From NCBI GenBank assembly GCA_036172245.1, contig JAYWIR010000081.1:1-64000 (forward strand): a stretch of DNA of 64,000 bases, written 5' to 3'. A program made the position numbers and the translations under genes. Below the pieces are notes generated by a model. That model was not told the DNA's origin. It was given only the letters and a program-made list of their open reading frames with translations, and searched no databases. Source of the DNA: Raillietiella orientalis (Eukaryota). Within the stretch, counting starts at the first letter, position 1. Every line of letters begins with the position of its first letter. Of this stretch, positions 1,850 through 49,339 are shown piece by piece.

Positions 1850-2400
1850 CAGGTCGGCTTCGATGCAACTTAGTCAGGCACTCGATTAAGACATTCTCTC
1901 AAGTGTGGCGAAACTATTGGATGAACCGCTTGCTCGTTGCAGAAAATGGATGGCTTTAAGAAGTTTTCATCCCTCGCTCGTGCATCGAATGCGTATGGGC
2001 TCTCAACCCAAATCGTTTCGGTCTGACCTAGACTCTCTGATCAAGAAAGCCCTTAAGAAAGAGATTCTTTCCCTTGACCAGGCCTCTTTCATAGAATACC
2101 TTCATGGTACTTTTACCCGAGGTTCCCTTGGCCTCCTTTTCTGCCATAATAGGCCTATATTCTGTAAGTAGACCCTGCCCTCAAACATCTTTCTCCTTTC
2201 CGAATCCCATAATTCGGGAAATGGCGTGGGCATCCTTCTCCGAGAATGTACGCAGAAAAGCGAAACGAGAGCTCTCGATGACACTTATATCAGGATATCT
2301 AAGTAAAGTCTTTAAACTCCCGTTTGAGGTTCCATAGAGAGACAGCTTAGTACTGGTCCGTGCTCCTGAAACCACGAAAAGACTTGAAATCAAGTGGAAG
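1850..2400 (+). mobile_element. Internal post-RT fragment of the same retrotransposon family
   Basis: HPSLVHRMRMGSQPKSFRSDLDSLIKKALK and IIREMAWASFSENVRRK align with 6164-6625 and 18435-18905. Confidence 0.8.
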
Positions 2401-2429
2401 GCTATAAATGGACAAATCTCCAGTGGTGT

Positions 2430-5400
2430 TGCGATTTTTCTGGTTTTTGTGTGAACACTGGTGGATTTTCATTCAATGATCCCCAACACCATAATGGACC
2501 TCTCCACCGATTCATCTGGATTTTCCATGGAAACTGTGGCTACAGTGATGAAAATTACACCCCCTCCCCATTTGCTGCTATGGATTAAACCAGAAAGCAA
2601 CTGAGACGGGAAGGAAGGTAGTGGCGTCCCTTTATGCCGATTCTATTGGTCGTCTTGGTGAGGAGGCTAATAGAATCGGCATAAGACTGAGCGCGATTAC
2701 CTATTACCTGTTGCGTGCTCTAACATGTGATCTCCCGTAGCGTCCCTTGCCATTTTCAAATTATGCCGCCGTTCAACTGCGTGCTATCAGTGGACAGGGA
2801 ACTATGGACTTCGCATGCCACTGATGCCCCTGTGCCCAGTCCTTTGCCTGGTTGAGCCTTTGCCACGAACGCGACAGATGTACGTAATCGCTTGCTCAAC
2901 TTCAAGGCTCATTTAAACCGTACTCACGGTGTGCATCTTCCGTCTGCACATTCCTTTTGCTCCCAGTGTCACAAGAATGAAAGCATCAGTCAGGCGGTGA
3001 ACAATCTCCTATGATACAGCCCTCCATTGCCTTATCCCGAAATGATCCTCACTATCCAATTCCGCTCTTTGAAGTGCAACGCCTCCTTTAGGCGCCATTC
3101 ACTGCAAAAATCTCATTATAAATGAAAATACCTAAATGTGGATCACGCCTCCGGGGATGCGAATGACGACCATGAAGACTGTGCACCCTCCATTGACTTG
3201 CCCAATTCACGAAACTAAGACGACTTTCGACTCTTAATCTAGCTGAGCTGACTCTGCTCAAGAAGCTCTGAACTGGTTTGGTACGCCACGCATTGGCAAC
3301 TAGAGCACAGTACGCTTACAGTCGAGGAGCATCCCTAACAGGGAACTCATAGTCATGTGTTCCGACTCCCCATCGGCTGTACCATCGCTACTTGATGTTG
3401 AAATACCGCCTATTCCTGACACCATAGATGGATCTCCCTTGCTGTTCCCTACTGTCCTCAGGCTGCCTGTCTACGTCCATAACTGTTCTCATGCTTTTAC
3501 TCGATATCAGCCTAGAGTGTTAGTCACCGCACTCTCGGCTGCAGATATTGAACGCTTTCTGCATCCAATGTTGGATTCTGTTTCCCCACCACATCATTCC
3601 ACAGAGGGCCAACACTCCTCCGTATCGGAACACTCGACCCTTACGATTGCCTCTCCCACACAAACTGCGATGAACCTCCTTCAACAACTCTCTCCGAGGT
3701 ACTGTCACCGTGATAGTGCCACGATCGCCTCCCCTCCTCCAGTTCACCCGGCATACATACGTGCAGTTGAAAATGAGCGCGGTCAGCGCAAACAGCCTCG
3801 TCTGATTATTTCCCGGTTTTAGAGGTCAAAAAGAACCATATTGTTGAACGAGGCGCGAACAGACAACGCAACTGTTGATTGGAGTCGTGACTGCACACGT
3901 CAGAGCTCCTAGCCTGCGTCAAGCCAGAGGTCGCAAGCAGACTGCGTTTCCGCTGCACGGCAGTTCACCGTGCTGTCTGGCCTCCTCCTGAAGCAGCCAG
4001 CATGGAAACTGCTACCGCTACGCACGCTCCGCCCGCTCCAGTTATATTGACTGAGGACGATGTGCTATATGTGTATCTTTGCACTGCCACCCATATGGCA
4101 TGTCTCCTGCCGAGATGTGAATGGCGAACCACCACCCAGCAGTCCAAAGGCACCTAAGAATCGCTGTTCCGCCACCTTATGATGGCGCATTGGATCTTGT
4201 CACGTGGTTTACATCATATCTGCGGACGGTGCAACATGCACGTATCGAGCCCCGTGTGGAGACACATTTGCGTTTTTCGGGCAGTCTGCTTTATAGAATC
4301 CGCCCCACTCTCCTGTCCTGAGCCGAACTGTGGTAAGCACTTCCGGAATCGAAAGGCTCTTGTCCACCACTCTCGCTGGCATGACTAGCTCGTCAGCGCT
4401 GAGGAAAGAGATTATATGTGAGGGCAGCGGGCGGCACCATCTGCGCTACCAACCAGTCGTCTGCTCATGCTTCGTTCGTACTTACGCTACCGCCCCCTCA
4501 CCTCGAGCCCTTAACATCATCGTTTGGCTAACTGGACTTCACCAACAACACCTGATGCGTCTCAGGTGTGGCAGGGCGCTCACCCGCAGTAGGCATGTAA
4601 CCAGATCTCGGCGTATTGGACTGCTGCGCGCAAAGCTTCCACGCCAGCGAATAACTTCCTCCAGTGAGAGTGAATTTCCTATGTCATCGACAGCAGTGCT
4701 GCCCCTGCTCGTTCACGTATGCATACTCCCGAAACATCTGTATCCAGAAACAGAAACTTCTGGTAGAACTTAATCGAAAGCCTTGGAAGAGTCCACCTGG
4801 CTACTAGTAGCCCTGGCTCAGCTCGCAAGGGCTCACGGTAGGTAGGTGGGGCTTAGCGATGCGTGCGCTCAACAACGCAAATTGCACTATACAGAGCGTT
4901 TTGGGTTTCCGCGTTTTTGTCGTCCCAGAAGCTCGTAGAAGACGAGCTACCATGTTTCCAAGATTCCTCGAAATATTATGCAATCGTGACCATTGTCGAG
5001 CTATTAATCTCGTCCTTGAAGATCCTCCACTAAAGTGCCATGCTAATCGGCAGGAAAGCGAGGTGTAGTTTCTGTATTTCTTTGCAGTTACTTCTGGCTT
5101 CCACCCTATAACTAGGAACTCCCCGTTGGCTCGGACTGCGAACAGGTGGACATGTTTTCTTTTGCTCCTTAGGAAATCGCCAGATGCCTTATGCTGTGCG
5201 AGTACACTGCCCCAGGCTCTGACGAAATCTCTTATACTGCATTCTCTTTCCTTGATCCTCAGTGACGCTTTCTGGGGGCCATATTTAACCTTTGCCTTGC
5301 CCGTCGTCGTATTCTGCCGGAATGGCAGGAGTCCCGGACAACCATCATTCCGAAGGCACATGCTGATCAATCGGATGACCCCTCTCAATTCCCTTCAATT

Positions 5401-7700
5401 ACTATCAGAAGGACAGTTGGAAAAACTTTCTCCAAGTGCCTCGCCCGGTGTTTACTTGTGTGGATCTTTCATAATGAAATCCTCGACCCGCACCAAAAAG
5501 GATTCTTGCCATACGATGGTGTTCTTGAGGATAGCCTCATGCTCCGACATCGAATGGTCTACAGCAAGTGTCACCATCGCACGCAGTGTGTAGCCTAGCT
5601 GGACATTAAGGATGCCTTTACCTCCATCTTCCACCCTCAGCTGCTCTGTGCCCTTCAGTGTGCTGCTGCTGGCGATGGCCTAGTTGAGCTGATCTGCAAA
5701 ATGTACTCAAATTATAGCACCCATGTAATCACCGCTGAAGGGTTGACATCACCACTCGCAGTTACCAGAGGTGTCAAGCAGAGATGCCCCTCTGAGGCAT
5801 TCTTTTTAACATTGCCTTTGAGTCCTTGTGTGTTAGTGTCAAATAGTGTTCCAGGGGTACGTGTCCTTGCATATGCTGATGACCTCGTCCTATTAACTGA
5901 AGACCCCAAGACCTTGCAACAAGCTCTTGACTGTGCCTCTGTGATGGCCAGTCGACTTGGCTTGAGCATCAATGCCAAAAGTGTGCATCCTTCCACCTCG
6001 ACCCAAGCACCCTGCGTACTGTTGGCAAGCAGCGTTTCCGAGTGGCAGGTGAAACCATGCCTGCACTTACGGACGCTGGCACCCACAGTTATCCAGGGCA
6101 ACCAGTCGGGTTTGATGCCATCCATAGCGAAGCTCTGCACACATTCTCTCTAGCGTTGCTAAAGTGCTCGATGCTCCACTAGCACCATGGCAAAAGATTG
6201 ATGCACTAAAGACTTTTATCTTACCCTCGTTAGTGCATCCGATGCGAATGGGATCAAAGCCTAAATCATTTTGGACTACATTGGATTCCTTGGTTAGGAA
6301 GGCTTTAAAGGAAAAGATCCTCCTCCTCACGCAGGCCTCGTCTAGACAAAACCTGTATGATAGTGTAGCTTGCGGCAGTCTCGGCCTGATGCTTCTGGAG
6401 GAAGAGGCCGATATCATGGCCGTTGACTCAAACTTCGAGCTCCTTTCCTGTCCGCAACCACTCATCAAAGTAATGCCATCGGCTTCACTTTATGAAACTG
6501 TACGCAGGAAAGTAAGGCAAGAACCTTCCACGGCCCTAACAGCGGGATATCTTAATGGTGACACCCATCTCCCATTTGACCTTCCATCGAGGGATCCCGC
6601 AGACTATTGGTACCGTGAACGCTAAGCCTTTAAGAGACTTCAACTCCAATAGGTCACAGAAGCTGGCCAAATGTCTATTGAGCTGGCCACAAAGCCTATT
6701 CGCGAGGCCAACTTCGAGCGGGACGAGTCGTTACTCGCCCCGTTCGAGGCTTGCGTCGCCTCAATAGCAGTGAGGCTCTTCGATCCAAACCGGATCAGGG
6801 CGGTATAATGGACTGCTTGGCTCTGCACTTGGCATCTATGGCCTTTAGTGAGCGCTCAGAGCTCACACGTTTCTGTGACTGGCGCTTTATCCATCGAGCC
6901 CGCTTGAACCAACTGTTCCTCAATGGAAACCGAAAGCGTCCAGGTTCACACAAGGCTTGTCGTCACTGCTTGTACACCTGGGAAACTCTGTCCCACGTGC
7001 TGTGCCATTGCACGAGACATTTAGCTACACGTATCCCGGCAAGGCACAATCAAGTTCTCGATCTCATTGACCAGTTTGCTCGGGCAAAATGTCGCCACCT
7101 CGCCATAGACCGATCTGACCCGACAATCAACAGTTCCCTTAGACCAGACATTGTTGCCACATACGGTTGCCGTATGCTGATGGTGAACGTCACCATATCG
7201 TTCGAGAATCCACGCGACGCCATGAATGCAGCACGGAGCTAAGCCAAAAGTGGAAGAATACCAGAAAGTCAGCAGGGAATACCAGGCACAGGGTCTCCGG
7301 GTCAAGGTAGATGCGCTCGTTGTCGGGTAACTAGGGAGCTGGCACCCGAACAACCTTGCAGTTCTCAGCTGTCTTTGCCTGAGCACGCAGCAAATAAAGG
7401 CGATACGCCCTAGAATCGTGTGCTCAGTGATCCGAGCAGAGCGGGATATCTACTTTGACCACACCACAACCCGTCCTTCAGCAACTACCGCTAATGAACC
7501 TGCAGCTCAAAAGCTAAAACCGGCGGCTCATCTTCATCTTTTCATGGTGCAGGGCGGCTTAACGGGACCTCATCGAAGTTTGAGCCTATCATGTAGTTTC
7601 CCCTTTCGAACTCCTCGTCCTCGGTAAACACTTGCGTGTCCCCAAGATTAATCCCCTTTTTAGAGCTTCTTTGTACAAATGAAAACGTAGTTAACTAAAA
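2430..7700 (+). mobile_element. Decayed Utopia/NeSL-like RLE non-LTR retrotransposon (copy A)
   Basis: C2H2 finger CPEPNCGKHFRNRKALVHHSRWH; RT motifs RGVKQRCP and VLAYADDLVLL; LAPWQKIDALKTF; RFCDWRFIHRARLN; CCHC knuckle CRHC..ETLSHVLCHC; RHN; RLE motif RPDIV...VTISFEN. Many frameshifts. 3' end is gaaaacgtagttaactaaaa at 7700. Confidence 0.9.
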
Positions 7701-7830
7701 GTCACCACAGCCGCGTTCGGACGTGTTTCCGCGTCGCTTCGTTGTTGACTCTGTAAAATCGCTTTTTGCGATTAAATAATTCCTAGTTTCTGTAAGTTTT
7801 TTGCAATTTGCAAGAACTTGGTCCACTCGT
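7701..7830 (+). repeat. Junction repeat X following retrotransposon 3' ends (also 14810-14940 and 20513-20534)
   Basis: gtcaccacagccgcgttcggacgtgtttccgcgtcgct (7701), gtcgccgccactgcgtttggacgtgtttccacgtcgct (14810), gtcgccgccgccgcgttcggac (20513). Confidence 0.8.
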
Positions 7831-8439
7831 GACCCAAATGTTACTTGTTCTAAGTTTATTAAACTTGAAACATCAATTTCCAAGTGTTTTGTATAGTATC
7901 AACGGAAAGGTAGGACACAATTCCTTCTGACTCTGTTTTTTCCCGTAATATTGCGCCTGCCCGATAATTTGATACTTTGTGTTCAAATTATCGGGCTTTA
8001 AGATCGTCGTATCCCTGTTTGAGTTGAAGAAATAAATAATTTGCAATTGGAATGGAAAATTGGAATTACGTGATCGCGTTGCTACGTTATGCCTAATACG
8101 TGGTATGAAATTGCAAAGTTCTATTTTTTACTCTATAGAATATGAATATTTTTTTAAACACTTCCGCTTGCTCTAAAACCTTCAATTTGTTTACTCTTCA
8201 GAGAAAACCAACATTCAACTTTAAATTTTATTTTCAAAATTTCCGAAACTTATTGGCGCCATCTACATCAGTCTCGTTACTAAAAGTGAATTTCGATTAT
8301 CTCGTTGTCAAGATAAACGTGATAAATTTTAACTCAATTGCTGCGATCTAGTTTAGTTGCTGGAAAGTGGTCTAACTTATTTTTGTATCGATTCTTAGAA
8401 AATAGGAAATTTTCAAAATACCTTTGCAGCTCTCACTTA

Positions 8440-8643
8440 GCCTCTCACTTATGCTCTCGTGTCTTTTCACAATGCCAGATCAGAGTCAAGCTCAGAAGTC
8501 TTCTTTCCTTGCTGATGTTTCCAAGTCAACGGACTTGGCTGTGGTTTCGCTACATAGTAGGAAGGGACAGGGGGATTCTCATTAATCCATTCATGCCCAT
8601 GACTAATTAGATGAGAAGGCACTTGGCTACCTTAAGACAGTCA
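8440..8643 (-). rRNA. Degenerate 28S rRNA fragment: half downstream of the insertion, containing an empty R2 target site
   Basis: agagtcaagctca, ttggctgtggtttcgct, atccattcatg and actaattagatga..ggcacttggctaccttaagacagtca are the reverse complement of the conserved 28S segment TGACTCTCTTAAGGTAGCCAAATGCCTCGTCATCTAATTAG. Confidence 0.9.
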
Positions 8644-11600
8644 ACTCCCACTGCAAGCATACAAGCCGGAATGTCCCATGCATGTGTCTCTGCTCGACAC
8701 TGAAGTACGGACTGATAGTGCGGACGGACATTCTTCCCTGCCCCCTGCACTGATCGGACCGCCTGTCTCGGTCTTGGTCACTCGGACGGACGTTTCCAGG
8801 AGATATCAGCCGCGAGCGCTCATCACGCCACTCTCCAAAGATAACAGCATACTTTATGCACCCAGCATCAAGCGATAGACTCCAACGCCAGGAACCAGCC
8901 ACAATTCCTACCTCATTCAGCTCGGGCAAATCGACCCTGACGGTTGCCTTGCCGTCGCAAACAGAAATGGGCCTATTCGACCAAATCCTCCCGAAGGGAA
9001 CCGTAACAGTGCTGGTGCCTCGATCATCTCCTCCCCCTTTCCGAGTGCACTCTGCGTACGTGCGGGCGGTCGAGGGAAAGGAAGGGAAGCGCAGGAAGTC
9101 GCGCCCTATCATTCCCCCGCTTCAGTGACAAAAGCAACTGGCTCTTCCAAATGATATACACCAAACTGACGTGGCTCTCGTCTTGTCGCCAGCTGAATGT
9201 GTTCCCCAGATCTCGCCACTCCTGTCACGCTCAAGACCCTGTGTTAACACTCTTTTAGCCACACGGCAGGTAACCGCGCAAGAGCCGTCTCGCTCAGGAG
9301 AAATGACCTCAACGCCTGCCACTGGAGAAAAAGCACCAGCTGCGCCAGCTGCCCTGACTGAGGACAACGTTCTTCCTGTACACCTCCCGACCACCAGCAG
9401 CATGTCATGTCCACTACCGAGATGCAGCTGGAACACCACAACCCAGCAACCCAGGAGCACATTATGTTCGCTGCGCCGACACCTAAAAATGGCTCACTGG
9501 AGTACGGTACGCGGTTCACATCTCATCTTCGGACGGTGCGACTCGCACGCATCGATACCCGTGGGGAGGCACAAATGCGGACCTAGAGTGCTCTGTTTCA
9601 TCGAACCTGCCCACTCCCCTTCCCGAAGTCGAATTGTGGTAAGAGCTTTTACGATCGAAAGCGCTCGCCAACCACTCACGGTTTTAAGATTCTCTGGCCA
9701 GGGCAGAGAAAAGGACACATTTTCGAGGGTTGCGAGGGCAACGCCCTGATTCAGACGCGCTGCCTTTCAGTCGCCAACCCATGCCATGGCCGAACCAGCC
9801 TCTTTGCCCTCGTACCCCAAACAGACAAGCACGTACTGTTCCCCCTCGCTGACCCGCGAACGCTCTCCACTGACAGGACTGGAGAGCGATGAATCTCCTA
9901 CTCCAACCGACGATCCCGATGGCACGAACCGCCCCATCCATGCCTGATCTGCCTCATGATCAGAAATGGAAAACAGTACATTACCGCCGAGGACGCCAGA
10001 GCAGGACCTTCGCTGCCCAGACCATTCATCCTTACCCCCCGTCGAAAGGCAGCCATTGCACAATGCGCCAGCGAGAGGCCTTGCGACATCGCCGCGAGCA
10101 ACCGCCTTCCGTTTCGTGCTTCTGGAAGACAAGAGTGAACAGGAATGCAAAGACTCACCCGTCGAAACAGCCGGCCACCCCCCTCACATCACCTTGCATC
10201 CATGAAATCCGCAGGCAGCCTAGCTCGGAGATGGCACAACCCCGTGCAGTCATACGGGATGCTACGAGTACTCGAGAGGCTCTTAGGGGCCCCCACGGTG
10301 GACAATCGGGGTCTAGGCATAAGGTCTCTCTCCATTGCATATCAAGCGATCCGAAGTTAATTGTACTTGCGACCTTTCTATGTTCCCGCTGTTGGCACCA
10401 GGAGATCGAATATGTCAACTCGTGCACTCGAACGGCTATACGTCAGAAACAGGCATCGTGCTATTCGACAAATAATGGATGGTGCACCAACCATTTGCAA
10501 TGCAAACCCGGAAAGGGTATATGATTACTTCAGTGAACTTTTTGATGACACACCAGGCTTTCGTCCCCTATCGTGGGACGCACAACAAGGCCCTTAGCAT
10601 GAGGAGCTTGATCTCTTCCCTTTCTTGGAGTCAGAGATTGCCAGCTTTCTAAGACAATGCAAGGACACTGCGCCGGGCGCTGACGGTATCCCTTACTCCG
10701 CCTTTCGGAAATTGAACTCTGAATGCAAACTGTTATGTGCCATGTTCAACATATGCCTAGCTCTCAGGCGGATCCCAGCAGAGTGGAAAGAATCCAGAAC
10801 CCTCATCCCCAAGGCGAATGCACAGGAACCTGGAGCCCTCTCGCAATTTCGGCCAATAATCATCAGTCGAACCATTGGGAAACTTCACCAAATGCATTGC
10901 TCTACGGATGAAAGACTAAATCCCCCAGAACGACATACTCGACCCTCACCAAAAAGGGTTCCTTTCATTCGACGAGGTGCTGGAGCACAACTTTATGCTT
11001 GCACATCTCATGGACTATAGCAAGGGGCACCACCGTAACCTCGGCGCAGCCTGGTCTGATCTCAAGGACGCTTACGCAACGATACCGCACTCCGAACTCC
11101 TCTGCTCCCTCCGTTGTGCTGGTGCTGGGAACCGTTTTGTGGAGCTCGTGTTTGAAATGTACACGGACAATATCACGCAAATAGTGACCACAGCAGGCCT
11201 CTCCCCGCCCATACACATCTGCAGAGGCGTGAAGCAAGGATGTCCGCTATCTGGACTGCTCTTTGATGTTGCCATCGAGCTACTCTGCCAAGAAGTCAAA
11301 CAAAATGTTCCCGGGATCACTGACCTTGCATATGCAGACGAGCTGGTTCTGCTTCCAGAGGACGCAGAAACGCTGCAAAAAGCGCTGGACATCTCTGGCG
11401 CCATGGCAGCTCGTCTTGGACTCTCCATCAATGCCAGGAAATGCTCCTTCCTCCACTATGACCAAACACTTTCAAAACTGTCGCCCAGGAACTATTCCAA
11501 GTATCGAGTGAACCCATACCCGCACTATGGTTACCGCCACGTACAGCTATTTGAAGAAACCGGTAGTGCACAGCCACGTGCTAGACGGTGGAGTTACCGA

Positions 11601-14600
11601 CAGTGTGGCCAAGGTTCTAGACTCGTCACTTGCTCCGTGGAAGAAACTTGACGCCCTTAACACGTTTGTGTTCCCAGTTTCCGTACATGCACTCAGGATG
11701 GGATCCAAACGAAAGATATTTTGGCCATCCATCGACATCATCATTAGAAAATCACTTAAAGAGGAGGTCCTCCCGCTTTGGCAGGACTCCTCTACAGAGT
11801 ACTTATAAGAAACAATCAGCAAGGGATCCCTTGGCATCATGCGACTCGCTGAGAAGGCTGACATAATGGCCACGGGCTTGGTCTTTAAACTCTTATCATG
11901 CCCCGATCACATGATTCGTGAACTGGCATGGGCCTCCTTACGTGAAACTATTCGTCGCAAAACTCGGCAAGATCATAATGCTGCCTGTCACTTCAACATG
12001 GTGACGGCTCCCCCTCTCAACCTGCCTTCCGGAGACCCGGAGGACTTCTAGTTTCGTGCCAGACAGGCTTCCAAACGACTCTCGCTACGATAGCTCATAT
12101 CGGACAACCAAGTCTCAATTGAGGTGGACGGTAAAACCTTGCGTGAGTCCGATAGGAAGATTGTTGCCAAATCGATCCCCGGAATCCGACGACTCGCCAG
12201 ATCCGAAAACCTGCGGGCCAAACCCGATCAAGGAAGAATCATCGACTGCGTGGCTTTGCACACATCCTCGATGTCCTACATGGGCAATAGCCATCTGATT
12301 CGCTTCTCCGACTGGAGTTTCTTGCAACGGGTTTGATCAGATTAAACCAACTCTTTCTGAATGGTAATCGAAAACGTCCCGGTTTCCATGAGGCATGCCG
12401 CCACTGCCTGCACCCCAAGGAAACGCTCGCCCATGTGCTGTGCCACTGCACAAGACACTTAGGGACTCGAGGCGTATGGCTGTCTCAGGAATGTCGAGCA
12501 CCGTGTTATGCCTGACTCGGATTCTGGGAAGGCATAACGCGGTGCTCGACATTCCTGGACAGCCATACGCCCGAAGCGGCGTGAACTAGCGATTGACCGT
12601 TGCGATCCTTAAATCAACAGTTCCCTCTGACCTGACATTGTGGCAAGTGACGATCGCTGCATGCTGCTCATCGATGTGACAGTCTCCATTGGAGAACAGA
12701 AAAACATCGATACACGAAGCCCGGGCTCGCAAAATTGCCAAATACCAAATCGTCAGAAGAGAGTGTAAGGCGCAAGGTCGGATGGTCAAGGTGGACGCTA
12801 TCGTAGTCGGGGCGCTAGAAAGCTGGCACAAGTACAACGACGCGGTCCTCAGCTGCCTGGAACTAAGCAACACCCAAATAAAAGAGATTCGCCCTAAAAT
12901 TGTGTGCTAATTGATCCGGACGGAAAGAGACATCTATTTTGACCATACCACGAGCTGACCATCGACGGACAACGGATCCACGGCCCATACTCCCTTATCA
13001 CCACAAGTCAAGTCGTCCTTGTACGGAGCAGCGTTCCGCAACCTCATGGACTTGTGACTGCAGTGAGTGCAGAGAGTAGTGAACGAGTAACCAGCGAACA
13101 AACAGTGCACCCAGCCTCTTACAGCTTAAAGCTCTAAGAGGGTGGATCCACATTTGTATGAGAAGAGTTGGCGATCGGCCCGTTCCGGGACGGCAGGTTT
13201 TACTCGCAGGAACGGGCCGCGGTGTGGGACGCTTTTGCGGCCCCCCTCCTTCGCCCCCTACTTTTTGTGTGCCCCATCCCCCCACAAATTAGCACACGGA
13301 CAAGGGGTCTCATACGAAAAGCCCTCTGGGGCAATCGGAGGCCCCACGTCCGAATTAAAGACGTGTGCGTTCCACGCAGGAACGGTGGTCTTGGTCTGCT
13401 GACGTTGGAGCGCATGGAGCAACAGCTTTAATTCAGAAAACTTGCCCTTGTGGCAAAGTTTTGGACAGCACACCAGGGTGCTCCCTTGAAACTCCTCGCC
13501 CACAGGGCAAACGGCTGCTACGGATTGACCTCAATCCTAGTAGCCAACGACCGCAGCCTGAACCATTGTGGGTTTCAGCTGCGGGATTCGGTTGCCCTGT
13601 TAAGAGACAATCCTTGGATCTCCAGCATTCCTGCGGACTGGACAACCTGGCTCCAAATGTCCGTTTCCGCATGGGCGAAAATAAACGGCTCTAGCGACGA
13701 GGAGTTCTCTTGCCTCCGTAGAGGCAGATACACTGGTCAGCCACTGCAGGAGATCGTCCGCAACCCACGAAAACTTTTGTGCGCTTCGTTCACCCCTCTT
13801 GCCTCCGTGCTGCCCACTCTTAGTGAAGTTCGGGACAGCCAGCAGGAGGCATCGTGGAAAGTGTCCTGCCTCATCGGAGGCAGGAAAAAACCTCTGAAGG
13901 CGTGGACGTCCCGGGAACTAGAGGACTCTAGTGCCCCGAGTGTACCGCCGAACGGACTTTTACGCTGGGGAGCGCTGCTCGACATATTTTTGGAGGGGGT
14001 GAAGTGGCCCCCAGCGTCTTGGGACAACGGCACCCTTCCCCTGCAATGGCAGAAGACAGCGTTGCTTTAGCTCCATTGGGGACTTTTAAGCAGAGTACGC
14101 CTATCTCACTGGACATCGGGGAGTGTGGATGCCAACTGCACAGAGTGCGAGGAACGGGAGACCTTCTGGAGTGTGTCGCCCTCCGGGATATGTGGGACCG
14201 ACTCTCATCGATCCTAAACATTTCGGTCGGCGATCCGAAGAACATATTTAGACGCCTCCTGATGCGGGACGCCTTGCCAGCCACCGGGTGTGTAGCAGTG
14301 CTGTTGCATACGCGGAATACTGGACAAGTGGACCGCGTCGGGGAGAGGAAGGAACAGTCGGAATGCCATTCACTGGGCAGCCATCTCTTTGTATAAGGCC
14401 TGCCGTGGGCGCCGACTTCGGAAACATTTGCCGGCACTTGTTCGCTTCCGAAACCGGATGCAGAGGCTTCCTCACGGCGTACCGTGATCGCCTTTCTTTC
14501 CCCTCCCCTCCCAGAAACATTGCCAGCCCCCACTAGTTTTTGTTTTTTTGGTTTTGTTTTTGTTTTTCCCGTCGCTGCGCCAGTGTGGAGAACCTAATAG

Positions 14601-14809
14601 GCTTGCGGGCCGGTAAGGACAAGTGCCACAAGACAGTCGCATCATGTGTGCCGACTGAAACAAATCAACGCATGAAAAAATTAATCGACAAAAAAAAAAA
14701 AAAGACCTTATTAGGAAATTTTTTTTTTTGTTATGTCAAAATTTTAGTAATAAAAGCCCCGGCTCACCCGGGTGAAAAACCTTTGTATGAGAAACGTGGA
14801 ATAATAAAA
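8644..14809 (+). mobile_element. 5'-truncated decayed Utopia/NeSL-like retrotransposon (copy B), interrupted in its 3' UTR by a LINE
   Basis: CPLPRCSW...LRRHLKMAH finger; TAPGADGIPY; EHNF; RGVKQGCPLSGLLF; LAYADE; LAPWKKLDAL; CRHCLHPKETLAHVLCHC; ARARKIAKY...IVVGALESW. 3' end is gaaacgtggaataataaaa at 14809. Confidence 0.9.
13165..14781 (+). mobile_element. 5'-truncated L1/Tx1-like LINE with 12-bp target-site duplication
   Basis: tttgtatgagaa at 13153-13164 and 14782-14793. Peptides ERAAVW..PLLFVCP and GGLGLL are homologous to 36001-37200 and 49340-51290. 3' end is aataaaagccccggctcacccgggtgaaaaac. Confidence 0.85.
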
Positions 14810-16747
14810 GTCGCCGCCACTGCGTTTGGACGTGTTTCCACGTCGCTCCGTGCGGTTAATTTGCAAAGTCGCTTTTTGTGCATAATTTGCATTTAAAAGT
14901 GTGATCTACCTTGCACATTTGCAAGAAGTGGTACTTTTTAGATGACGGACGTGTATCTACAAAACTCCCGCTCGTATCATTTGCAAACAGTGTGTATGAA
15001 GATTTTTCAGTGGTGACCCTTATCAACTTTACGTTTTGTGCATCCTCTGCCCACAGTGAACCTTTTCACCAACTTTGGTGCCAGTGTAGTGGAAATTGTG
15101 GTTCCTGTGGACAATTCCGTCTTCCGCCTACATGCCGCCATGGCTTTGACCAGAGAGAATGCTTACCGGGAAGCTAAGAGGGTTGCATCGACCTAATCGA
15201 TCGCTTGGGTCCTCGCCAGTTGTACTCATTCACATTGTGACTTTTGCAACCACTGTGGTTAGCTGGACTTGGCGAAGCGTCGCACGCCATCTTGGAAAGA
15301 TGCCGTTTCACTGTTCTCTAGCTATGGCAAAGAAATTGTGGATTTCCCATGCCACAGACTACCCAGTGCCATGTTCCTTGCCTGACTACATTTGCATCCA
15401 CTGCGACAGACATTGAAAATCGCGTGCGCAACTTCAAACACACATGAACCGCATTCATGGCGCTCATGTTTAGGTGGTGCATTTTCTCTGTTAGCTGCCA
15501 TAAGAGTGAGAACACTAAGCAGGTGCTGTACCACCATCGGTGTCTCAATCTTCCTGTGCCGCTCCCAGAAATGCTCATTGCACTTGAATACCGGTGCTCT
15601 AAGTGCAATGCATCCTTTGGTCGTCCCTCCCTTAGGAGAGCGCACTATAAGTGGAAGCACCTAAACATGGACCGTGCCCTAGGTGCGGCGAATGAAGCGC
15701 ATGAGGATTGCGGACAAGGCATCGAGTTTCCCAACTCCTGGGACGAAGGCGACTATCCGAACTCGTCCAGCAGCTCGACGTCCTTACAGAACCATAATTG
15801 GTTCAACTTGTTGCCTTCAAGTAACCACAGCACCACTCAGCAAGACAGAATGACCACTGCAGCCCGGGATACTGGTGCGTATGGAAACCAAGATGGGACG
15901 CCTCCCTTGTCGTCCTCTTTCTTGGACACCGAAATGCCTTCAACATCGACGGCGGCTAAACATCATGTCAGCCTGCTACATGCTCTGAGCGGGCTGCCTG
16001 TCTCGGTACCGATACGAGCTACAAAGGACCTCAATCATCAAAATCAGCCCAGAGCACTTGTGACCAGGCTCTCCAGTGCTGAGATTGACTAATTTACTCG
16101 TCCACATCAGTGCAACGTGCCTCCCAGAGCCCTGACTCCTGTTCAATGGTCCCACAATTTCGGGCACTCGACTCTGACATTTGCCTCTCCCTTGCAAACT
16201 AGAGCTGATCTTCTTGAGCAACTCTCCCCGAGGGATTCTACCACAATACTGGTATCGCCTTCTCCTCCATTTTCCCCTCCTGTGCATATCGCATATGTTC
16301 ATGCAGTCGAGCGAAAGAAGCCTAGGCGCAGACAACAGCGCTCGGTCATCCCACGACTACAACGTCAAATGCGGCTCTCCCAGGCGCGTAATACACAATT
16401 AATGTTGCGAGACTCAGATCGTTTAGTGAGCGTGCACCAACTAGATTACCACCGCATCCTCGCTCCTTAGCACACGAGAACCCGATCCCGGTCACACAGA
16501 AAGTGAATGAACCGCCTTTCCCTTCCCAGATACAGACTGCCTCCTTGTCCACTACATCCGGCACCTGCCGCACCTTCGTTCCTGACTGAGGATGATGTCC
16601 TCCTGGTCTACCTCTCGACCAGTACCAGCACGCCCTGCCCACTTCCACGATGCAGATGGAAGGCCACAACACAGCAAGCCAAGTCCACTCTAGGGTCGCT
16701 GCGCCGACACCTTAAGATGGCTCATTGGATTACGGTACTTGGTTCTA

Positions 16748-16955
16748 TTCCCCCAAATATTACTGCCCTCCCACGTTTGAAACTTTGTTTTGTTTTTTTT
16801 TATCCCCACCCCGCGCATCAGAAGGACCTCGCCGGAATAGCGCCGGCAAGCAGCAAGCTGTTTTGATGTGGTGGATTTTCGGGATCGCCACGCGACAATT
16901 CTATATATTTTTAGTTTGCATAAACAATTGCCCCGGCATATCAGGGTGTGAAGAC
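16748..16955 (+). mobile_element. Short 3'-end fragment of the L1/Tx1-like family inside copy C
   Basis: T-rich UTR followed by gccccggcatatcagggtgtgaa, matching the 3' ends near 14757-14780 and 46151-46176. Confidence 0.6.
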
Positions 16956-19783
16956 AGCAACGCTGTCCCTGCTCGCCCCGCAACGCCTCCCAGCTAGAGA
17001 TCTGCCTCGGGGAGCCAAAGGGAGGTTAGGAGAAGGTGGTCGGATCGCCTCAGGGAAACAGCCAGACTCCTTGAAGACATTGGCGCTCATCACCAGCTGT
17101 GGACAGATGGGGCCTCGCCATGCGTGCACTTGACTCTTCCTATAGCACAATCAGAGATGCTCTTGGACTGCGCCCCTTTGCTGTGCCCACGATACATGCG
17201 AGACCCTCGAGTGTCACCTCGATCCCTCCAAAGGTTGTACAATCAGAACCGCCGCCGAGCAATCCAGCTTATATTGGACGGTTTCCCGGTTAAGTGCCAT
17301 GTTGAGCGGCAAGGAACGCAGGCGTACTTCGTTCATCTCCTTGCGGCTACGCCCGGGTTTCAGCCATTGAGCTGGAGCTCTGAACTTTCTGTGAACTATG
17401 AGCCGATTGACATATCTCCCTTCGACCCGAGGGAGATTGCCAGCTGCTTGCGGTTATGTGAGGACACTGCTCCGGGAGCAGGCGGCATCCCTTACTCGGC
17501 TTTCCGCCGCCTTGACCCCGAGTGCCGCTTTCTCACTGCAATCTTCAACATTTGCCTCGCACACCGCCGGATCCCGCCGGAATGGAAAAACTCGCGCACG
17601 ACCCTCATTTTAAAATCGCAGGACGACCAGCTGGAGGACCTCTCCTAATTTCGCCCGATTGCGATCAGTCGCACCATCGGAAAGCTTTTTTTCAAAGGGA
17701 CTCGCACGCCGAATGCGGGAATGGATCTCAGACAACCGGGTATTGGGGCCACATCAAAAGGGTTTCCTTCCCTATGATGGTGTCCTCGAGCACAATTTCA
17801 TGCTGAGGCACCAGATGGACTACAGCAGGCGTTATCGTCGCACATTGTGCGTTGCATGGCTGGACTTGAAGGACGCCTTTGCCTCAATCTCGCAATCCCA
17901 GCTCTTCTCCTCCCTCCAATGTGCTAATGCTAGCGATAGCCTCATAGAGCTTATCTGCCAGATTGAATCTCAAAACAGCACCCAGATCGTCACCACCGAA
18001 GGCCTCACTGACCCCACTGCGGTCACCAGGGGCGTGAAGCAGGGATGCCCTCTGTCTGGCCTCCTGTTCAACATTGCCCTGGAACCGCTGTATGTGCATC
18101 AAGCAGAACATTCCAGGCGTCAATTTGTTGGCCTATGCTAATGATCTCGTTCTTTTGACGGAAGACCCGGCTACTCTGCAACGGGCGCTCGACTGTGCGA
18201 GTGGGATGGCTAGCCGTCTTGGGCTTAGCATCAACACGAAAAAGTGTGCCTCTCTCCACCTAGACCCCCGCTCCCCACGTGCTGCTGGCAAGCAACGATT
18301 TCGGGTTGCGGGTGAACCCATGCCTGCCCTCTCGGATGCCGGCATGTATAAATACTTAGGGCGACCGGTTGGCTTTGACGTCATCCACAGTGACTCCCTA
18401 GATGAGGAAATTTTAGCCAGCGTGACGATGGTGTTTGATGCTCCCCTTGTGCCATGGCAAAAAAACGATGCCATTAAAACTTTCATATTCTTATTCTTCG
18501 TCCACTCGTCACCAATTGGGTCCGAACCGAAAACTTTCTGCGCTGATCAAAAAAGCAATCAAGGAGGACATCCTCCCTCTCACACAAGCTTCCTCCACGA
18601 AAGAATTGTATAATTCCGTAGCCCAAGGAAGCTTGGAATTAGTCCTCCTAGCAGAGAAAGCCGACATAATGGCCATCGATTCTGCCTTCAAACTGCTATC
18701 CTGCTGGGACTCCATCATTCGAGAAATGGCTTGGGAGTTCCTTCGCGAGACAGTCCGAAGGAAAATCAAACAAGAGCCCTCACCGGACCTCATATCGCGA
18801 TACCTGAATGGCATCATTGCTGCACCCTTTGATCTGCCATCAGGTGATCACAAGGAGTACTGGTCGCGAGCTCGTGAGGCCTCGAAACGGCTCCAGCTCA
18901 AGTGAGTGGTTAATGCTGACCAAGAGACTTCTCTTTACAGCTTGCCACAAGAAGCTTGCGTGAATCTGATCGGAAGATCGTAGCCCGGTCAATCCGTGGC
19001 CGACGTTGACTTGGACGTTGTGAAGCTTTCGAAGCCAAGCCTCATCTATTCCGGATCATCGAATGTGTGGCTTTTCTCCCGGAATCTATGGTCTTTTTGG
19101 AGATCATGAGATCCTAGTGGCTGGCGCTTCATCCACCGTGCGCGCCTTAACCAATGCACCTAAATGGTAATAGAAAGCGCCCCGGCTTTCATGAGGCCTG
19201 CCGTCACTGCCCATATCCCAAGGAGACTCTGTCTCATGTCCTGCGTCACTGCACCAAGCACTTGGAGACCGCCATCATGGCACGACACAATCAGATCCTG
19301 GATCTAATCGATCCAGTCGTTCGTTCGAAGTGGCGCCACCTCGCCATCGAACGATCCGATCCGAGCATAAACAGCTCCCTTCGCCCCGACATCGTTACCA
19401 CTGACGGCAATCGCATGCTGATCGTGGACGTCACAATTCCATTCAAGAACCGAAGAGACGCCATAGATACAGCAAGAAGCCCAAAGTTGGACAAATATGG
19501 TGGCATCAGCAAGGAATACCAAGCTCAGGGCTCCCAGGTTAAAGTGGAGGTGATCGTTGTCGGGTCGCTGGAAAGCTGGCACCCGTACAACGACGCCGTT
19601 CTCAGCTGTTTCGGCCTGAGTGCACAGGAAATAAAGGCGAGTCGCCCCAGGATCATGTGCTCAGTGATCCGAGCTGCTCGAGATATCTACTTTATCCACA
19701 AAACCACTCGGCCCTCCAGCGACATCGAACCTGCTGCCCAGGAACTCACTCCGGCAGCGCATTCCTCGTGGTGTAGTGCGGCT

Positions 19784-20425
19784 CCAGCACTAGAATTAGT
19801 AGCTGAGGCATGCCGACACTCTGCAAGCAACGAGCCAGCCGGTGACTAATAAACGGCAATTACACAGAATGCCGCATTACGAGCTAATTTAAATTTGCTT
19901 GGGTACGCAACACTCGTGAACAGAAGAGCGGAAGCCAAAAACATCTTCCTCAATATCGGAATCGCGGCTAACCAGTTCCCTGAAGACGTCCCTGGGACTG
20001 CAATTAATTTTGCACTCATCGATGCAGTTTCCGAAGTGCTAAGGAACGCTAGCGGGTTCAAAATGTTCGAACTCGCAATGCCCAGCGTCCAAGCAGGAGG
20101 ATGCCGAGCTATGATGCTCCCATCGCGACCAGAGGGAAACTAGAATCCAACAGGAGTCGCATACACTAACAGCGACTTTGTTACCAGCTCTCTAAACCGC
20201 GAAAAAGCAGTGACGTTCGGAGTTGCAGCAGTACTGCTCCTCCAAATGTACAAGGAACCAAGACCCTTCGGGGTACAACCACACAATGCGTGGGCCGGTT
20301 TCAATTACACTGCTGCCATCCCAATTTCGCCCGCCCTAGTCAATTCCCGGAATGACCGGCGAGGAGCAGAAGGTGATCCACACCATATTCCTGCAAGATT
20401 TAGGACGAGCGTGTTTATTTGTGTC
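19784..20425 (+). pseudogene. Endogenous viral element: partitivirus-like (dsRNA virus) capsid C-terminal fragment
   Basis: One frame with stops at 19847-19852 and 20141-20143: PALELVAEACRHSAS..NLNLLGY..GIAANQFPE..INFALIDAVSEVL..FK..SLNREK..LQMYKEP..W..P..NSRNDRR. Resembles, from memory, capsids of arthropod partiti-like viruses. Confidence 0.6.
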
Positions 20426-20539
20426 CAAAAATTGTGAAAACCTGGATGTCACCCAGTGCGCTTCCCCTCTCTAGGGTTTTTATTGTTTAACCAAAAGCGT
20501 GGTAAATAAAACGTCGCCGCCGCCGCGTTCGGACTGGTC

Positions 20540-20901
20540 GGTTGGTCAAGGTGGACGCTATCGCAGTCGGGTCGCTGGGAAACTGGCACCCGAACAACGA
20601 TGCGGTCCTGAGCTGCCTGGGCCCGAGCAACACAGAAATAAAGGCGATCCTCCCTTGAATCGTGTGCTTAGTGATCCGGGCGGCAAGGGATATCTACTTA
20701 GACCACACCACCAGCCGACCATCGGCGGACACCGAACCGATGCTCTCGGCACCCTTGTCGCCTGCAGCTCATCCATCATGGTGCGGGGCTGCATTCAGAG
20801 ACCCCATCGAACTATAACCGAGTGATCAATGAACTGCGAATTCCAAGTGCATCCACCCTCGTTTGGCAACTATTGTAAAATAAGAAACGTGGAATAAATA
20901 A
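20540..20901 (+). mobile_element. 3'-terminal fragment of Utopia/NeSL-like retrotransposon (copy D) joined to 28S
   Basis: ggtcaaggtggacgctatcg...ctggcacccgaacaacga matches the RLE C-terminus of copies A and B. Ends gaaacgtggaataaataa directly before the 28S sequence. Confidence 0.85.
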
Positions 20902-21320
20902 AGTTACTCCCACCGTTTACTCGCACTTGGTTGAATCTCTTCACTTTGACATTCAGAGCAGTGAGCAGAAATCACATCGCGTCAACACCAACAACGGCCA
21001 TCGCGATGCTTTGTTTTAATTAGACGGATTCCCCTTGCCCGTGCCAGTTCAGAGTCGATCGCTGCATACCTGCCGAAACGCTCCGGGACCAAAGAGTCCG
21101 GTCGCGCGCAGGGCGACCACCAACCGGAACTTCAAGCGAGGCCGTTCCGGGGTTCGGAATCTCTAGCAAGAACGCGATGGTAGACCATCATCGCTACAGA
21201 AAAGGGCGCGCCATCAGAGTGCGCCGCGGGCCCAAGCGGAACCGCCGGCACGTACGCGCCCCAAACGAGCGGCGAAACGCCGATGTGCCGTTAGCCTGTT
21301 CTCTCGTGCCACCCTGCCAC
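20902..21320 (-). rRNA. Degenerate 28S rRNA fragment: half upstream of the insertion plus GC-rich expansion-segment-like sequence
   Basis: agttactcccaccgtttac..cttcactttgacattcagagca..gcagaaatcacatcgcgtcaacacc..tcgcgatgctttgttttaattagac is the reverse complement of conserved 28S. The right boundary is uncertain beyond about 21060. Confidence 0.9.
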
Positions 21321-21329
21321 AGCTGACGC

Positions 21330-21940
21330 TGAAGCATCGCCTCATGTTCCAACTTTCCTTTCCTCAATCAGGAGCATCTCCCATAACAATCGTGAAACCA
21401 CTCCACCAAACTCTTCAGCAACAAATACACCTAGACCTTCAAGTGGCACTGCTTTAAATGCCCCAGTCCATTCTACGATCGATAATTTCCTCCAAGAAAT
21501 TCACCCACCCTCAATGGATCAACCCTACTCCCTACTTCCCAACTTCTCTGAACAATTTCGTGTCCTAATTTTCCAACCTAAAAAGAAAGATGAAGAATAG
21601 AAATGCTGAAGTCCAAATTGATCTCCCTCCTCTTATGCTTATGTCGTTCTAATAGCGAATTCTCCCCTCGATCTTCAAAATGCCCTCAACCACTTTGCTT
21701 TGGCTACCAGCGTAGCCCGCTTCACCATCAACCCAAATATTGTGCCCCTTAGCATTTCGTTTCTTTTCCCGAATGGTCCTACATCGGGTTTGACCCTCTT
21801 ATCTATGACAGTGCATCGGTAAATTTGCCCTTAACTTTCAAATTATTCTGCAATCTCCTCAAGCGCTGTGGAAGAAGTTATATGCCATCAAAACGTTTTT
21901 CATTCCCTCCCTCGTACACGACCTTCGTTTAGGTAACAAG
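21330..21940 (+). mobile_element. Highly decayed non-LTR RT remnant
   Basis: LLAYVVLIANSPLDLQNALNHFALATSVARFTINPN resembles the YADDLVLL..LQ.AL...GL.IN segment of the RT. Confidence 0.4.
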
Positions 21941-21954
21941 CAATTATCGGCAAA

Positions 21955-22370
21955 TCTTCTCGCCAACCTACGTCTCAGAAAGCGGCAACTGGAACTCTTC
22001 GACACCAACAAAAAACCAGCAAACCAGAGAACCATATTCTGGTTTTACGACACATTTGGCAACGCAGGAAAAACTACGATGGTCAAATATCTATACCGCA
22101 AAAAAGGAACCATCTACATGCATTTCTGCCGAAAAGCTGGCGCAGCCCATATCTACAATGGGGAACACATCGTTGTCACGTGACACACACGTGTCTTCAC
22201 ACGTGACAACCAAGAACATGTACAATATGGCTTTGTAGAATCCCTCAAAAATGGGATATTCGACTCCAAATATCAAGGATCGATGAAGTACTTTGACGTT
22301 GGAAACACTCATATTTGCGAACTGGGAGCCCGACAACTCAAAAATGAGTGCTGACAGATGGTTTGCAAAA
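21955..22370 (+). pseudogene. rep: CRESS-DNA virus Rep SF3 helicase domain (nanovirus/alphasatellite-like), endogenised
   Basis: RTIFWFYDTFGNAGKTTMVKYL (Walker A); YNGEHIVV (degraded Walker B region, followed by a stop); QYGFVESLKNGIFDSKYQG; after a frameshift, FANWEPDNSKMSADRW (motif C region). Confidence 0.85.
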
Positions 22371-25600: not shown

Positions 25601-26795
25601 AACTTGGAAAAGCCTTCTTAATGAATTCGGAGTTCACCATCTCATCTGCTCTTCAAATCGCCTCGATTGGCCATTGCAAGCACCAGGATTCGTGCTTCCA
25701 CCTTTCTTAGGTGTAAATGAATTTCAATTAAAACTTGCATCACAAGTTGGTTTCTTGGAATACGTGTTTTCCGGAGCTTTCAGTAAACCTGCATTTTTTT
25801 CCCCTAATTTCTCCCCAGAGTTACGTGAATGAAAGAGGATGCATACGCCTTTCGTTTTCTGATTTCAGATTTTCAATTGTATGATGTTCAGTGTAAGAAG
25901 TCAGCTCGAGTGAAGAAGCTTCGTGCAGCTCATCAGATTCCACCGAAATCGAGGAAACGTGCCGTCCGACACACAAGTGAGTACCTTTTTGAAAACCTAA
26001 TTATTAAATAGTCTCGTAATTTTGAACATCTGTTTCAAAGCCATCTTCAAAATCCGAACCCATGCATTCAACATATTTGCTATTCGAGCTGATTTTTGTG
26101 TGCATTTTTGTGGAATCGTCATCTTTAGATTCCTAAAGGAGGATTTTCCTTTCGATCCAAAAACTTTCCTTGTATCCATGCAGGGCAACCGCTGCTGCAG
26201 GTTATTGAGCAACTGTTTTCTTACAAAGTTCGGTTTTATCATCCTTTAGAATTTTGCAGTTGAGGCATTGAGAAACTGTGCTGAAATTCCATACCAAAGG
26301 TGAATGCTGCAGTTCTGCATTCCTGCCGTTCAGCTAAACCATTTGAATGCTATTTTGGCACAATGCTTTTTTCCGACGCCAACTTACTTGCCTTTTGCCT
26401 TTCGAATGCACTGAGAATTAGCACGTCTTTGCTGTCCTGAGAATGTTGATGACCTATCCTAAACGAAACAGTTGCATTTACTGTCCACTCTTCCAAATTC
26501 TAGGCAGCTGCGACGTTTGCAATGGAGAAGTGCTCTTGGGTGCACTCGCTTAATTGCTTGCCAAGTGTGCTGGCAGATTATGATGTTTCCCACTTTTAGG
26601 AATTCGGAAATGGGGATTGTCTGCAATTTTCAGCTGCATAGGAGGAATCCAGTTGTAGCAATCGAGCAATCTTTGGTGCTTCAAAGCAGGAGTTGAGGGT
26701 TCCCTGGGAACATGTACATGTTTGCTGTCTAGCTGTGTTCGATCATATGCTGCCCCCTTAGTCAGTTTCTCACATTTGGCGTTCCCTCAACCTAA
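22655..26795 (+). repeat. Unclassified interspersed repeat, copy 1 (inverted copy at 55530-61902)
   Basis: Colinear inverted blocks: 22655-22900/61660-61902, 22900-23350/60620-61060, 23600-24780/59480-60450, 24790-25280/58470-58915, 25290-25480/56940-57130, 25870-26795/55530-56480. Paired ORFs include 24361-24615 with 59630-60118 and 26472-26696 with 55641-55865. Confidence 0.85.
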
Positions 26796-27724
26796 ATGTG
26801 GTGAGCGGGTCTCGGATGAAGCACTTCAAGGGAAGGCGTGACGACGAAGACTGCAAGGCATATATGTTTACATGCCGATCGATACGAGTCTTCATGTCTT
26901 GAGGTGTCCCACATTGCTCCGCGACTGACTGGCCCTGAAAAGCGTCATTGGGCTGACCACCACTTCAGTCATGAGAATTCAAGCAGGGATGTGCCATGAA
27001 AACGGAAGCGTTTTCTTCTACAATCCAATAACCCAACCACGCCGACCAAGAAGTATGTTTAGTACCAAACAATATGGATCTGAATGTCTCTACCAAACAA
27101 GAAATATATATATGTTAGTTGTCAGGGACCACATGAATCAATTGATATTTACAAATGATAGGATACTGAAAGTGATTGGTTACTTAGATAATTGCCAGGG
27201 TGAGAGTGAATCCACATCTGGATCTGTATTGATTACTACGAGTCTTGCAATATGTAAGAGTTGTTCTGTAAGTGTCATTTTCCATACATATACCAGAAAT
27301 TGCTGCTGCCATGCTGTCAACACTGGTGAGAGAAAGCACTGTGCCATAATCCAAAAGAGGTGATGCAACATGAAGTGTTAAATTTTTTTCCATTGCAGTG
27401 AAGGTAGCAAGACGTGCACCAACGTTTGGAGGCCACATATCACAAAAATGCCACCATATCTTTTAGCCAACTCCGTATGTTTTTCTCCTTCATTTCAAGT
27501 GTCACAAAAATATGAAACTGTGCATTAGTATTTTCGGTTTGACCAAAGACTGATTCCTGAATTTTGTGTGAACGCAAGGGACATATATCACTACTTCACT
27601 TACAGTTAATTTGTAGTACTCACTTGGTGAGTACAGAAAGTGTAACATCCAATTAATACAAAATCATGTGCAACATACGGCAATCTCTCTTTCTCCAAAG
27701 CATTCCTCACCGTTAGACAGATTA

Positions 27725-43705: not shown

Positions 43706-43799
43706 TCCATTGTATTGGAGCAGATAATTGAGCTCAGATCCGACAATACAACAATTCATGCAAAGTGCTGATTCTTCCTCTGTACATAAAAAGTTCCAC

Positions 43800-49335: not shown

Positions 49336-49339
49336 CGAT

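Follow-up and report, generated by a model that had tools for sequence, protein, structure and literature searches.

The window analysed here, the first 64 kb of contig JAYWIR010000081.1 from Raillietiella orientalis, contains a relic of a 28S ribosomal RNA (rRNA) gene that is split by 12,258 nt of decayed retrotransposons without long terminal repeats (non-LTR elements). Their coding strand is the plus strand, opposite in sense to the rRNA. With a probability of about 0.55, this locus is the fossil of a low-copy family of NeSL/Utopia type with one open reading frame (ORF) and a restriction-like endonuclease (RLE), which was once inserted into 28S through target-primed reverse transcription (TPRT) and became stacked at one junction. 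That the family was site-specific for this 28S position is slightly favoured. An initial annotation of the same DNA had proposed Utopia-like elements inserted antisense in 28S, with ends as expected from TPRT. An insertion of RLE-type elements antisense to the rRNA by a TPRT-like event, at GGGAGTAAC(T)^, is supported.

Searches for rRNA, U2, ribozymes and other RNA elements covered the entire window and were performed against Rfam at the gathering threshold and at E<=1. LSU_rRNA_eukarya matched on the minus strand at 20848-21027 (96.3 bits) and, a second time, at 8585-8672 (39.5 bits). Searched alone, the right piece matched over 20850-21364 (108.8 bits, model positions 1902-2317) and the left piece over 8202-8700 (93.8 bits), the latter with a high-posterior alignment only at about 8420-8643. 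Read as rRNA, the right piece finishes with ...AAACGGUGGGAGUAACU and the left one opens with UGACUGUCUUAAGGUAGCCAAG..., while the consensus is GGGAGUAACUAUGACUCUCUUAAGGUAGCC. Therefore, the two pieces are neighbours in one gene. Between them, only the A of AACUAUGA is missing (1 nt), or UA (2 nt) if base 20902 is part of the A-rich tail of the element. The rejoining of two 28S halves that had been described from the sequence is thus found by Rfam, too, but the loss of at most 1 nt has to be changed to 1-2 nt, depending on the assignment of base 20902. The break in rRNA sense is GGGAGTAAC(T)^ATGACT. The R2 site (8626-8635) is uninterrupted and its nick position GCTA^CCTTAA (plus strand, 8629/8630) intact. 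It is separated from the break by 14 nt and the lost base, in agreement with the 14-15 nt upstream of an empty R2 site reported before. At conserved consensus positions, the upstream piece differs by ~7% and the downstream piece by ~12% (hand count on printed alignments), with many CpG transitions. In a 28S piece of ~690 bp in total, such divergence points to an old, decayed orphan pseudogene located outside any working ribosomal DNA (rDNA) unit.

Self-comparison and alignments yielded the plus-strand order 28S-downstream / B (with C nested) / D / E / 28S-upstream (Table 1). The insert is a head-to-tail stack of the related copies B, D and E with an unrelated element C nested in B. Originally, 12.3 kb of elements B, C and D had been listed. 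The size is correct, whereas the contents are B with nested C, D and, in addition, E. Copies outside the insert are A, G and H. A homologous 3' terminus (..GAAACGTGGAATAAnTAA) is common to four copies, and ends at 7700 in A, 14809 in B, 20512 in D and 20901 in E. The 22-mer GTCGCCGCCGCCGCGTTCGGAC occurs three times with <=3 mismatches (at 7701, 14810 and 20513; 0 expected), each time directly after a 3' terminus, and at 7701 and 14810 it runs on into ~170 nt of similar sequence. Therefore, it represents the 5' terminus of the full-length element, and the junctions are head-to-tail. The 22 nt GTCGCCGCC... behind the 3' ends of A and D were also considered as a second genomic target; this was rejected, as they are the element's own 5' terminus. 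The duplication TTTGTATGAGAA that flanks C has two matches compared to 0.01 expected.

Table 1. Coordinates of the 28S relic and of the elements in and around it (plus-strand numbering of the window; RT, reverse transcriptase; TSD, target site duplication; UTR, untranslated region; LINE, long interspersed nuclear element; SIDE, short internally deleted element)
Feature	Position	Strand	Remarks
Element A, decayed copy	2300..7700	+	RT 5599-6150; RLE 6682-7480; 5' part inside an inverted duplication, start approximate
G, 5' terminus of another copy	7701..7880	+	Starts GTCACCACAGCC..., joined directly to the 3' end of A; similarity to the 5' UTR of D fades after ~170 nt
28S relic, downstream of the break	8420..8643	-	Rfam LSU_rRNA_eukarya; rRNA sense starts UGACUGUCUUAAGGUAGCC; holds the intact, empty R2 site
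Octamer ACTCCCAC	8644..8651	+	Possible partial TSD of 20906-20913, TAGTT missing; last bases CCAC overlap the sequence of B (microhomology)
Element B, main part	8652..13164	+	5'-truncated by ~1.08 kb compared to D; zinc-finger ORF 9129-9746; RT ORF 10920-11648 (RVT_1 E=3.5e-19), followed by thumb region and decayed RLE
Element C	13165..14781	+	Poly(A) LINE fragment unrelated to B, nested in the 3' UTR of B; exact 12-nt TSD TTTGTATGAGAA at 13153-13164 and 14782-14793
Element B, final 16 nt	14794..14809	+	3' terminus ..ACGTGGAATAATAAAA, adjoins the 5' end of D
Element D, full length (5.7 kb)	14810..20512	+	5' terminus GTCGCCGCC...; 3' terminus ..GTGGTAAATAAAAC
Element E, internally deleted copy, 389 nt	20513..20901	+	Consists of the 5'-terminal 24 nt and, fused to them, the last ~365 nt; 3' terminus ..GAAACGTGGAATAAATAA adjoins 28S
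28S relic, upstream of the break	20902..21364	-	Rfam; rRNA-sense end ..GGUGGGAGUAACU; includes an expansion segment
H, small decayed piece (post-RT region) of a related element	21839..22039	+	Lies beyond the right end of the relic; tblastx/tblastn match with A of 53% over 32 aa (E=7.6e-10)

At the right junction, a precise element 3' terminus abuts AGTTACTCCCACCG. Among the four 3' ends it is the only one that adjoins non-element DNA, and it does so exactly at 28S. The left junction reads GTCA / ACTCCCAC / TGCAAGC, and the downstream half of the target starts TGACTCTCTTAAGG. Here, B begins ~1.08 kb inside full-length D. A 5' truncation on the left and a 3' terminus on the right, as initially assigned, are therefore both confirmed, the latter by the terminus common to four copies. 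By contrast, the claim that there is no TSD is doubtful, because ACTCCCAC is present at both ends (8644-8651 and 20906-20913). The two octamers are identical, including an A where the Rfam consensus has G, and the window holds seven copies versus 1.48 expected. The stretch of D that is homologous to the left-junction region of B reads CCACTGCA. In the simplest reading, B would be a truncated complementary DNA (cDNA) joined via the CCAC microhomology, leaving a partial target duplication without TAGTT. The left junction (8514-8775) is spanned with 0 differences by one independent-looking contig of a low-coverage DNA run, possibly from the same sample.

The coding content was analysed in a Pfam scan of 26 stop-to-stop ORFs. 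Four of them contain RVT_1, located at 5599-6150 in A, at 10920-11648 in B and at 17614-18138 and 18038-18610 in D. Downstream of the RT, all copies display CRHC...ETLSHVL(C/R)HC, RHN, RPDIV and VDVT, the signature of the CCHC finger and the PD-(D/E)xK nuclease of R2-type elements. Upstream of the RT, C2H2-like fingers are found (CPLPRC...LRRHLKMAH, shared by A, B and D; YRCSKC...HYKWKH, seen in D). In D, the fingers are situated at ~15600 and 16582-16746, the RT at 17200-18500 and the CCHC motif with the PD-(D/E)xK RLE at 19151-19750. This domain order was confirmed by tblastn with full-length relatives, which at the same time revealed at least four frameshifts across RT-RLE in addition to stops. 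The catalytic box of the B RT is YADE. All copies are dead, and the locus has no intact ORF. RT and endonuclease ORFs are on the plus strand and 28S on the minus strand, so that the elements indeed read opposite to the rRNA, as had been stated. No Myb domain (PF00249) was found in the 26 ORFs, whose N-terminal regions are decayed. Neither an HDV-like ribozyme nor an R2 3' UTR RNA was matched by Rfam in the window at E<=1, a negative weakened by the decay. Hallmarks of NeSL-1 proper were not seen either: The Pfam scan of the 26 ORFs gave no protease family, and the window no Rfam match to spliced leader (SL) RNA.

The 3' UTR of D carries an extra segment of ~600 nt (19853-20440), which is not present in A, B and E. 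An interpretation of 19853-20512 as a separate element 'F' was rejected in favour of a segment inside the D 3' UTR. On the plus strand, 19853-20434 contains a 194-codon frame with one stop. Over its first 76 residues, this frame shares 66% identity with a protein of 170 aa annotated in Echinostoma caproni (P0362). No Pfam family matched this frame. The segment may be a captured host or transposable element sequence, or a nested insertion.

A database search with the RT of B retrieved 98 proteins of near length, the best one with 41% identity, and 288 longer proteins. The best 120 of these 288 originate from spiders, ticks, aphids, beetles, crayfish, nematodes, a sponge and a turtle, and 117 of the 120 lack the Myb domain PF00249. 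The RLE ORF of D yielded 1157 database representatives, none above ~45% identity. Both RT and RLE can be recognised as similar to R2 proteins of solved structure (8gh6, E=8.5e-18, and 9nl3, E=1.3e-11). However, the RT reaches only 68 bits with R2Bm compared to 141 bits with Myb-less arachnid proteins; the RLE scores 48 bits with the solved R2 protein. A FastTree analysis comprised 117 rows, which were database relatives and included no named Utopia, NeSL, R5, R4 or HERO references. In this tree, the three RT pieces of the window (A, B and D) form one clade (support 100) with a long branch, which is nested in a 67-row, mostly arthropod, Myb-less clade (support 99). The elements are not R2: They occupy another site on the opposite strand, the scanned ORFs gave no Myb domain, and the RT scores better with the Myb-less arachnid proteins. 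The architecture (fingers, RT, CCHC, RLE) and the host range of the nearest relatives fit the NeSL/Utopia group. Among the relatives, some gene models have repeated RLE segments: P0219 contains four identical 122-aa units, and P0220 and P0221 show the order RLE-RT-RLE. Therefore, head-to-tail or nested arrays seem to be common in this group.

Utopia elements have one to three N-terminal fingers, an RT, a CCHC motif and an RLE (PMC4640811), and the same layout is found here. Many of the taxa behind the nearest database proteins are on the list of Utopia hosts, among them Ixodes, spiders, aphids, Dendroctonus and Pelodiscus (PMC4640811, Table 1). The absence of Myb is used to separate Utopia from R2 (Hassan et al., 2026, PMC13188248). 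In Utopia, the 3' flank begins at U2 nucleotide 39, and the 3' junction is precise while the 5' junction is variable; tandem insertion has been described for Utopia-1_NVit (PMC4640811). In contrast to Utopia, the target here is 28S in antisense orientation, and the identity to any database protein is only ~40%. As noted earlier, U2 is lacking; no U2 small nuclear RNA (snRNA) match was obtained anywhere in the window, neither at the gathering threshold nor at E<=1. The designation 'Utopia-like proteins' is consequently justified for the NeSL/Utopia architecture and the host range of the relatives, but not for the defining U2 target.

RLE clades are mostly target-specific, and within the R5/LIN lineage target specificity has diversified to two sites in 28S, tRNA-Arg and tRNA-Glu (PMC4640811). 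The 3' ends of LIN24_SM and LIN26_SM, two NeSL-clade elements from Schmidtea mediterranea, are on the 28S antisense strand at GAAATC|ACGTTG (Kojima and Jurka, 2015, PMC4640811, S6 Fig). LIN9_SM is inserted antisense at another 28S site, GGTAAC|TTTTCTGAC (PMC4640811, S6 Fig). This means that antisense 28S insertion by NeSL-clade elements is already known. By our own count on S6 Fig (PMC4640811), the LIN24/26 junction is located 74 nt upstream, in rRNA sense, of the break described here. Like LIN9/24/26, the elements are RLE-type single-ORF non-LTR retrotransposons in 28S antisense orientation, with LIN24/26 in the same conserved 28S block. None of the LIN9/24/26 sites shown in that figure is shared, and the likeness to R5/LIN is in orientation and element type. 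The LIN24/26 tails are T-rich, whereas the elements here end ..AATAAATAA. No report of an element at this 28S position was found in the literature, including the accessible portions of PMC4640811, PMC13580325, PMC13188248, PMC3636483 and PMC5035012; Repbase was outside the scope, so that newness is not established. The novelty suggested by the initial annotation is hence restricted to this position, and smaller than claimed in view of LIN24_SM/LIN26_SM at a distance of 74 nt (PMC4640811).

With R2, the elements share the RLE type, TPRT and the 28S niche. R2 inserts in sense at TTAAGG^TAGC; here, the insert is 15 nt upstream on the opposite strand and the R2 site is empty. Element E resembles the SIDEs, internally deleted non-autonomous derivatives of R2 (PMC3414825), since all it keeps is the 24-nt 5' terminus and ~365 nt at the 3' end, which are what TPRT requires. 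In contrast to SIDEs, E is a single decayed copy.

Do the copies stem from one insertion event or several? In 198 columns common to A, B, D and E, the four copies have 11, 16, 18 and 7 private differences, respectively. Among the 2-2 splits, (A,D)|(B,E) occurs 11 times compared to 5 and 3 times for the other groupings. These counts suggest two subfamilies and a younger E. Furthermore, E retains all CpGs of the 22-mer, which is unchanged, whereas D and G each differ at three positions, mostly CpG. As E appears to postdate B and D, repeated insertion at the same place is weakly favoured over a single event. If this holds, recognition of the upstream half is required, because the youngest copy lies beside the upstream 28S half.

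From these data, we infer the following history. The endonuclease would cut the rRNA-sense strand behind GGGAGTAAC(T), at a point 15 nt upstream from the nick of R2, and the freed 3' OH would serve as primer on the element RNA, which would be copied starting at its conserved 3' terminus. Priming from the rRNA-sense strand would place the element antisense to the rRNA, and it would therefore need its own promoter in the conserved 5' UTR instead of RNA polymerase I read-through. At least three copies would have been placed at the same junction. B would have come first, 5'-truncated and joined to the other 28S half via microhomology with a small target duplication and deletion. Full-length D would have followed, and the internally deleted, SIDE-like E would have been the last. 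Each new copy would have entered at the border of the upstream 28S half, directly behind the 3' end of the copy before it, implying recognition in the upstream half. Today, the 28S piece is an orphan pseudogene and all copies are dead.

For site specificity it can be argued that RLE clades mostly have specific targets (PMC4640811), that a chance hit which rejoins cleanly in the most conserved core of 28S is improbable, and that several copies may share the entry point. In the one DNA run, depth is ~1-2 over the elements in contrast to 10-18 over the interspersed repeat C (80% likeness), which fits an rDNA-restricted family. A number of observations weigh against specificity or against successive insertions. 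There is a single junction between an element 3' end and the genome (the other three 3' ends adjoin copies), so that specificity is based on n=1. The family fragments A, G and H flank the 690-bp relic on both sides, and piling onto own copies would look alike. Beyond the relic, no further rDNA was detectable across the window (Rfam, E<=1). The age difference of E relies on small counts (7 vs. 16, one-sided p ~0.05, own binomial estimate). The tandem junctions have no copy of ACTCCCAC; if the octamer is a TSD, later insertions made none. Additional copies of the junction were not found in the low-coverage DNA run (share 0.11), which is thin and from which conserved 28S contigs were probably filtered out, making it silent on other copies. 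In metagenomes, a pattern for the occupied site (4 A/T followed by the antisense 28S flank), which also fits native rRNA, gave 0 junctions among at least 120 loci. All of these matches were native rRNA (114 by motif test, 6 by eye) with ..TTAT/TAAT before AGTTAC. A search of viral contigs with the RLE ORF found no relative. With one junction and no second copy, the 'retargeted site-specific lineage' of the initial annotation is not shown.

The single informative junction and the family fragments around the relic also speak for a one-off or off-target event. Here, the family would be non-specific, weakly specific or aimed elsewhere, e.g. at U2-like sequences; an element would have landed by chance in an orphan 28S piece, and the stack would have arisen by tandem insertion or template jumps. 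We regard this as possible, at clearly less than even odds. A head-to-tail junction exists at A/G as well, where no 28S sequence is located beside the 3' end of A. Only the leftmost copy is 5'-truncated and three downstream copies have intact 5' ends, as predicted by a chain of template jumps. A single TPRT event with such jumps is possible and would explain why truncation affects the leftmost copy only, but it does not predict that E is apparently younger than B and D. The site GTCATA^GTTACTC is identical to U2 GTAGTA^TCTGTTC at 7 of 13 positions (hand alignment), with the nick aligned if base 20902 belongs to the element; once the choice of alignment is allowed for, this resemblance is not significant. 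Weakly specific Utopia copies occur at U2-like motifs outside U2, and reptile Utopia is weakly specific (PMC4640811). Together with the loose U2 resemblance, this allows the off-target explanation. On the other hand, rDNA-like sequence makes up a tiny share of a genome, which renders a chance hit in the conserved core unlikely a priori. That the 28S-like flanks are not a target at all, but a 28S-derived UTR of the element, transduced flanks or an assembly chimera, is very improbable: Some fish R2 families do have 28S-like sequence in their 3' UTR (PMC5035012) and the relic is short (~690 bp) and isolated, but A, B and D share their 3' terminus without 28S sequence behind it, both flanks are contiguous parts of one 28S gene around the whole stack, and the contig of another run crosses the left junction without difference.

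Compared to these explanations, the fossil of a 28S-inserted NeSL/Utopia-type family remains preferred. A more far-reaching proposal is an undescribed rDNA-specific, Myb-less RLE lineage that homes to GGGAGTAAC(T)^ATGACT in 28S antisense orientation, inside the R2 target footprint. It would recognise the upstream half only, and so re-enter occupied or dead copies and build stacks. This proposal is tentative and falls somewhat short of even odds. If the family truly homed here, the R1-R9/LIN catalogue would be extended by a further 28S target site. Such homing would also be another case of NeSL/Utopia-type endonucleases readily switching targets, at a site that overlaps the R2 recognition region on the opposite strand, and would bear on how rDNA parasites compete and on efforts to find site-specific insertion enzymes. 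Provided that intact relatives survive in the host clade, they might offer a second, R2-independent entry to the rDNA safe harbour. As it stands, the gain in practice and in concept is modest: The locus is a dead fossil, only one of its junctions is informative, and a precedent at a distance of 74 nt is already in print.

Some other features of the window were observed. An inverted duplication (1-1726 vs. 2535-4293; 89.6% over 1762 nt, sub-arms 98-99%) takes in the 5' part of A. An extended series of further inverted-repeat arms, 22655-26803 vs. 55534-61903, with 76-92% identity and ~29-39 kb apart, represents two opposite copies of a several-kb repeat. Element C is akin to 36111-37197 and 50514-50821 on the opposite strand. 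The region 46000-52000 (minus strand) is GC-rich, with up to 58.5% GC, and contains an RVT_1 ORF at 50821-51318 on the minus strand. As 13158-13465 in C and 50514-50821 are 70% identical, the LINE at 46000-52000 is the parent family of C. Between 37500 and 39700, mitochondrion-like fragments were detected: The minus strand carries an ORF resembling cytochrome b and the plus strand one resembling ND (Proton_antipo_M). When read with the flatworm/echinoderm mitochondrial code, the former grows from 135 to 226 aa and the latter from 150 to 190 aa. GC skew is +0.61 at 38-40 kb, and the ND-like ORF is <=39% identical to any prokaryote match. The fragments are probably a nuclear mitochondrial DNA segment (NUMT) and may point to a host resembling flatworms. 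Four short ORFs (34359-34727, 41926-42438, 43347-43724 and 44839-45171) are weakly matched by the Pfam families HisRS core, T2SSE, NMT1_3 and Helicase_C (E-values between 1e-8 and 4e-5) and could be exons, decayed gene fragments or chance matches.

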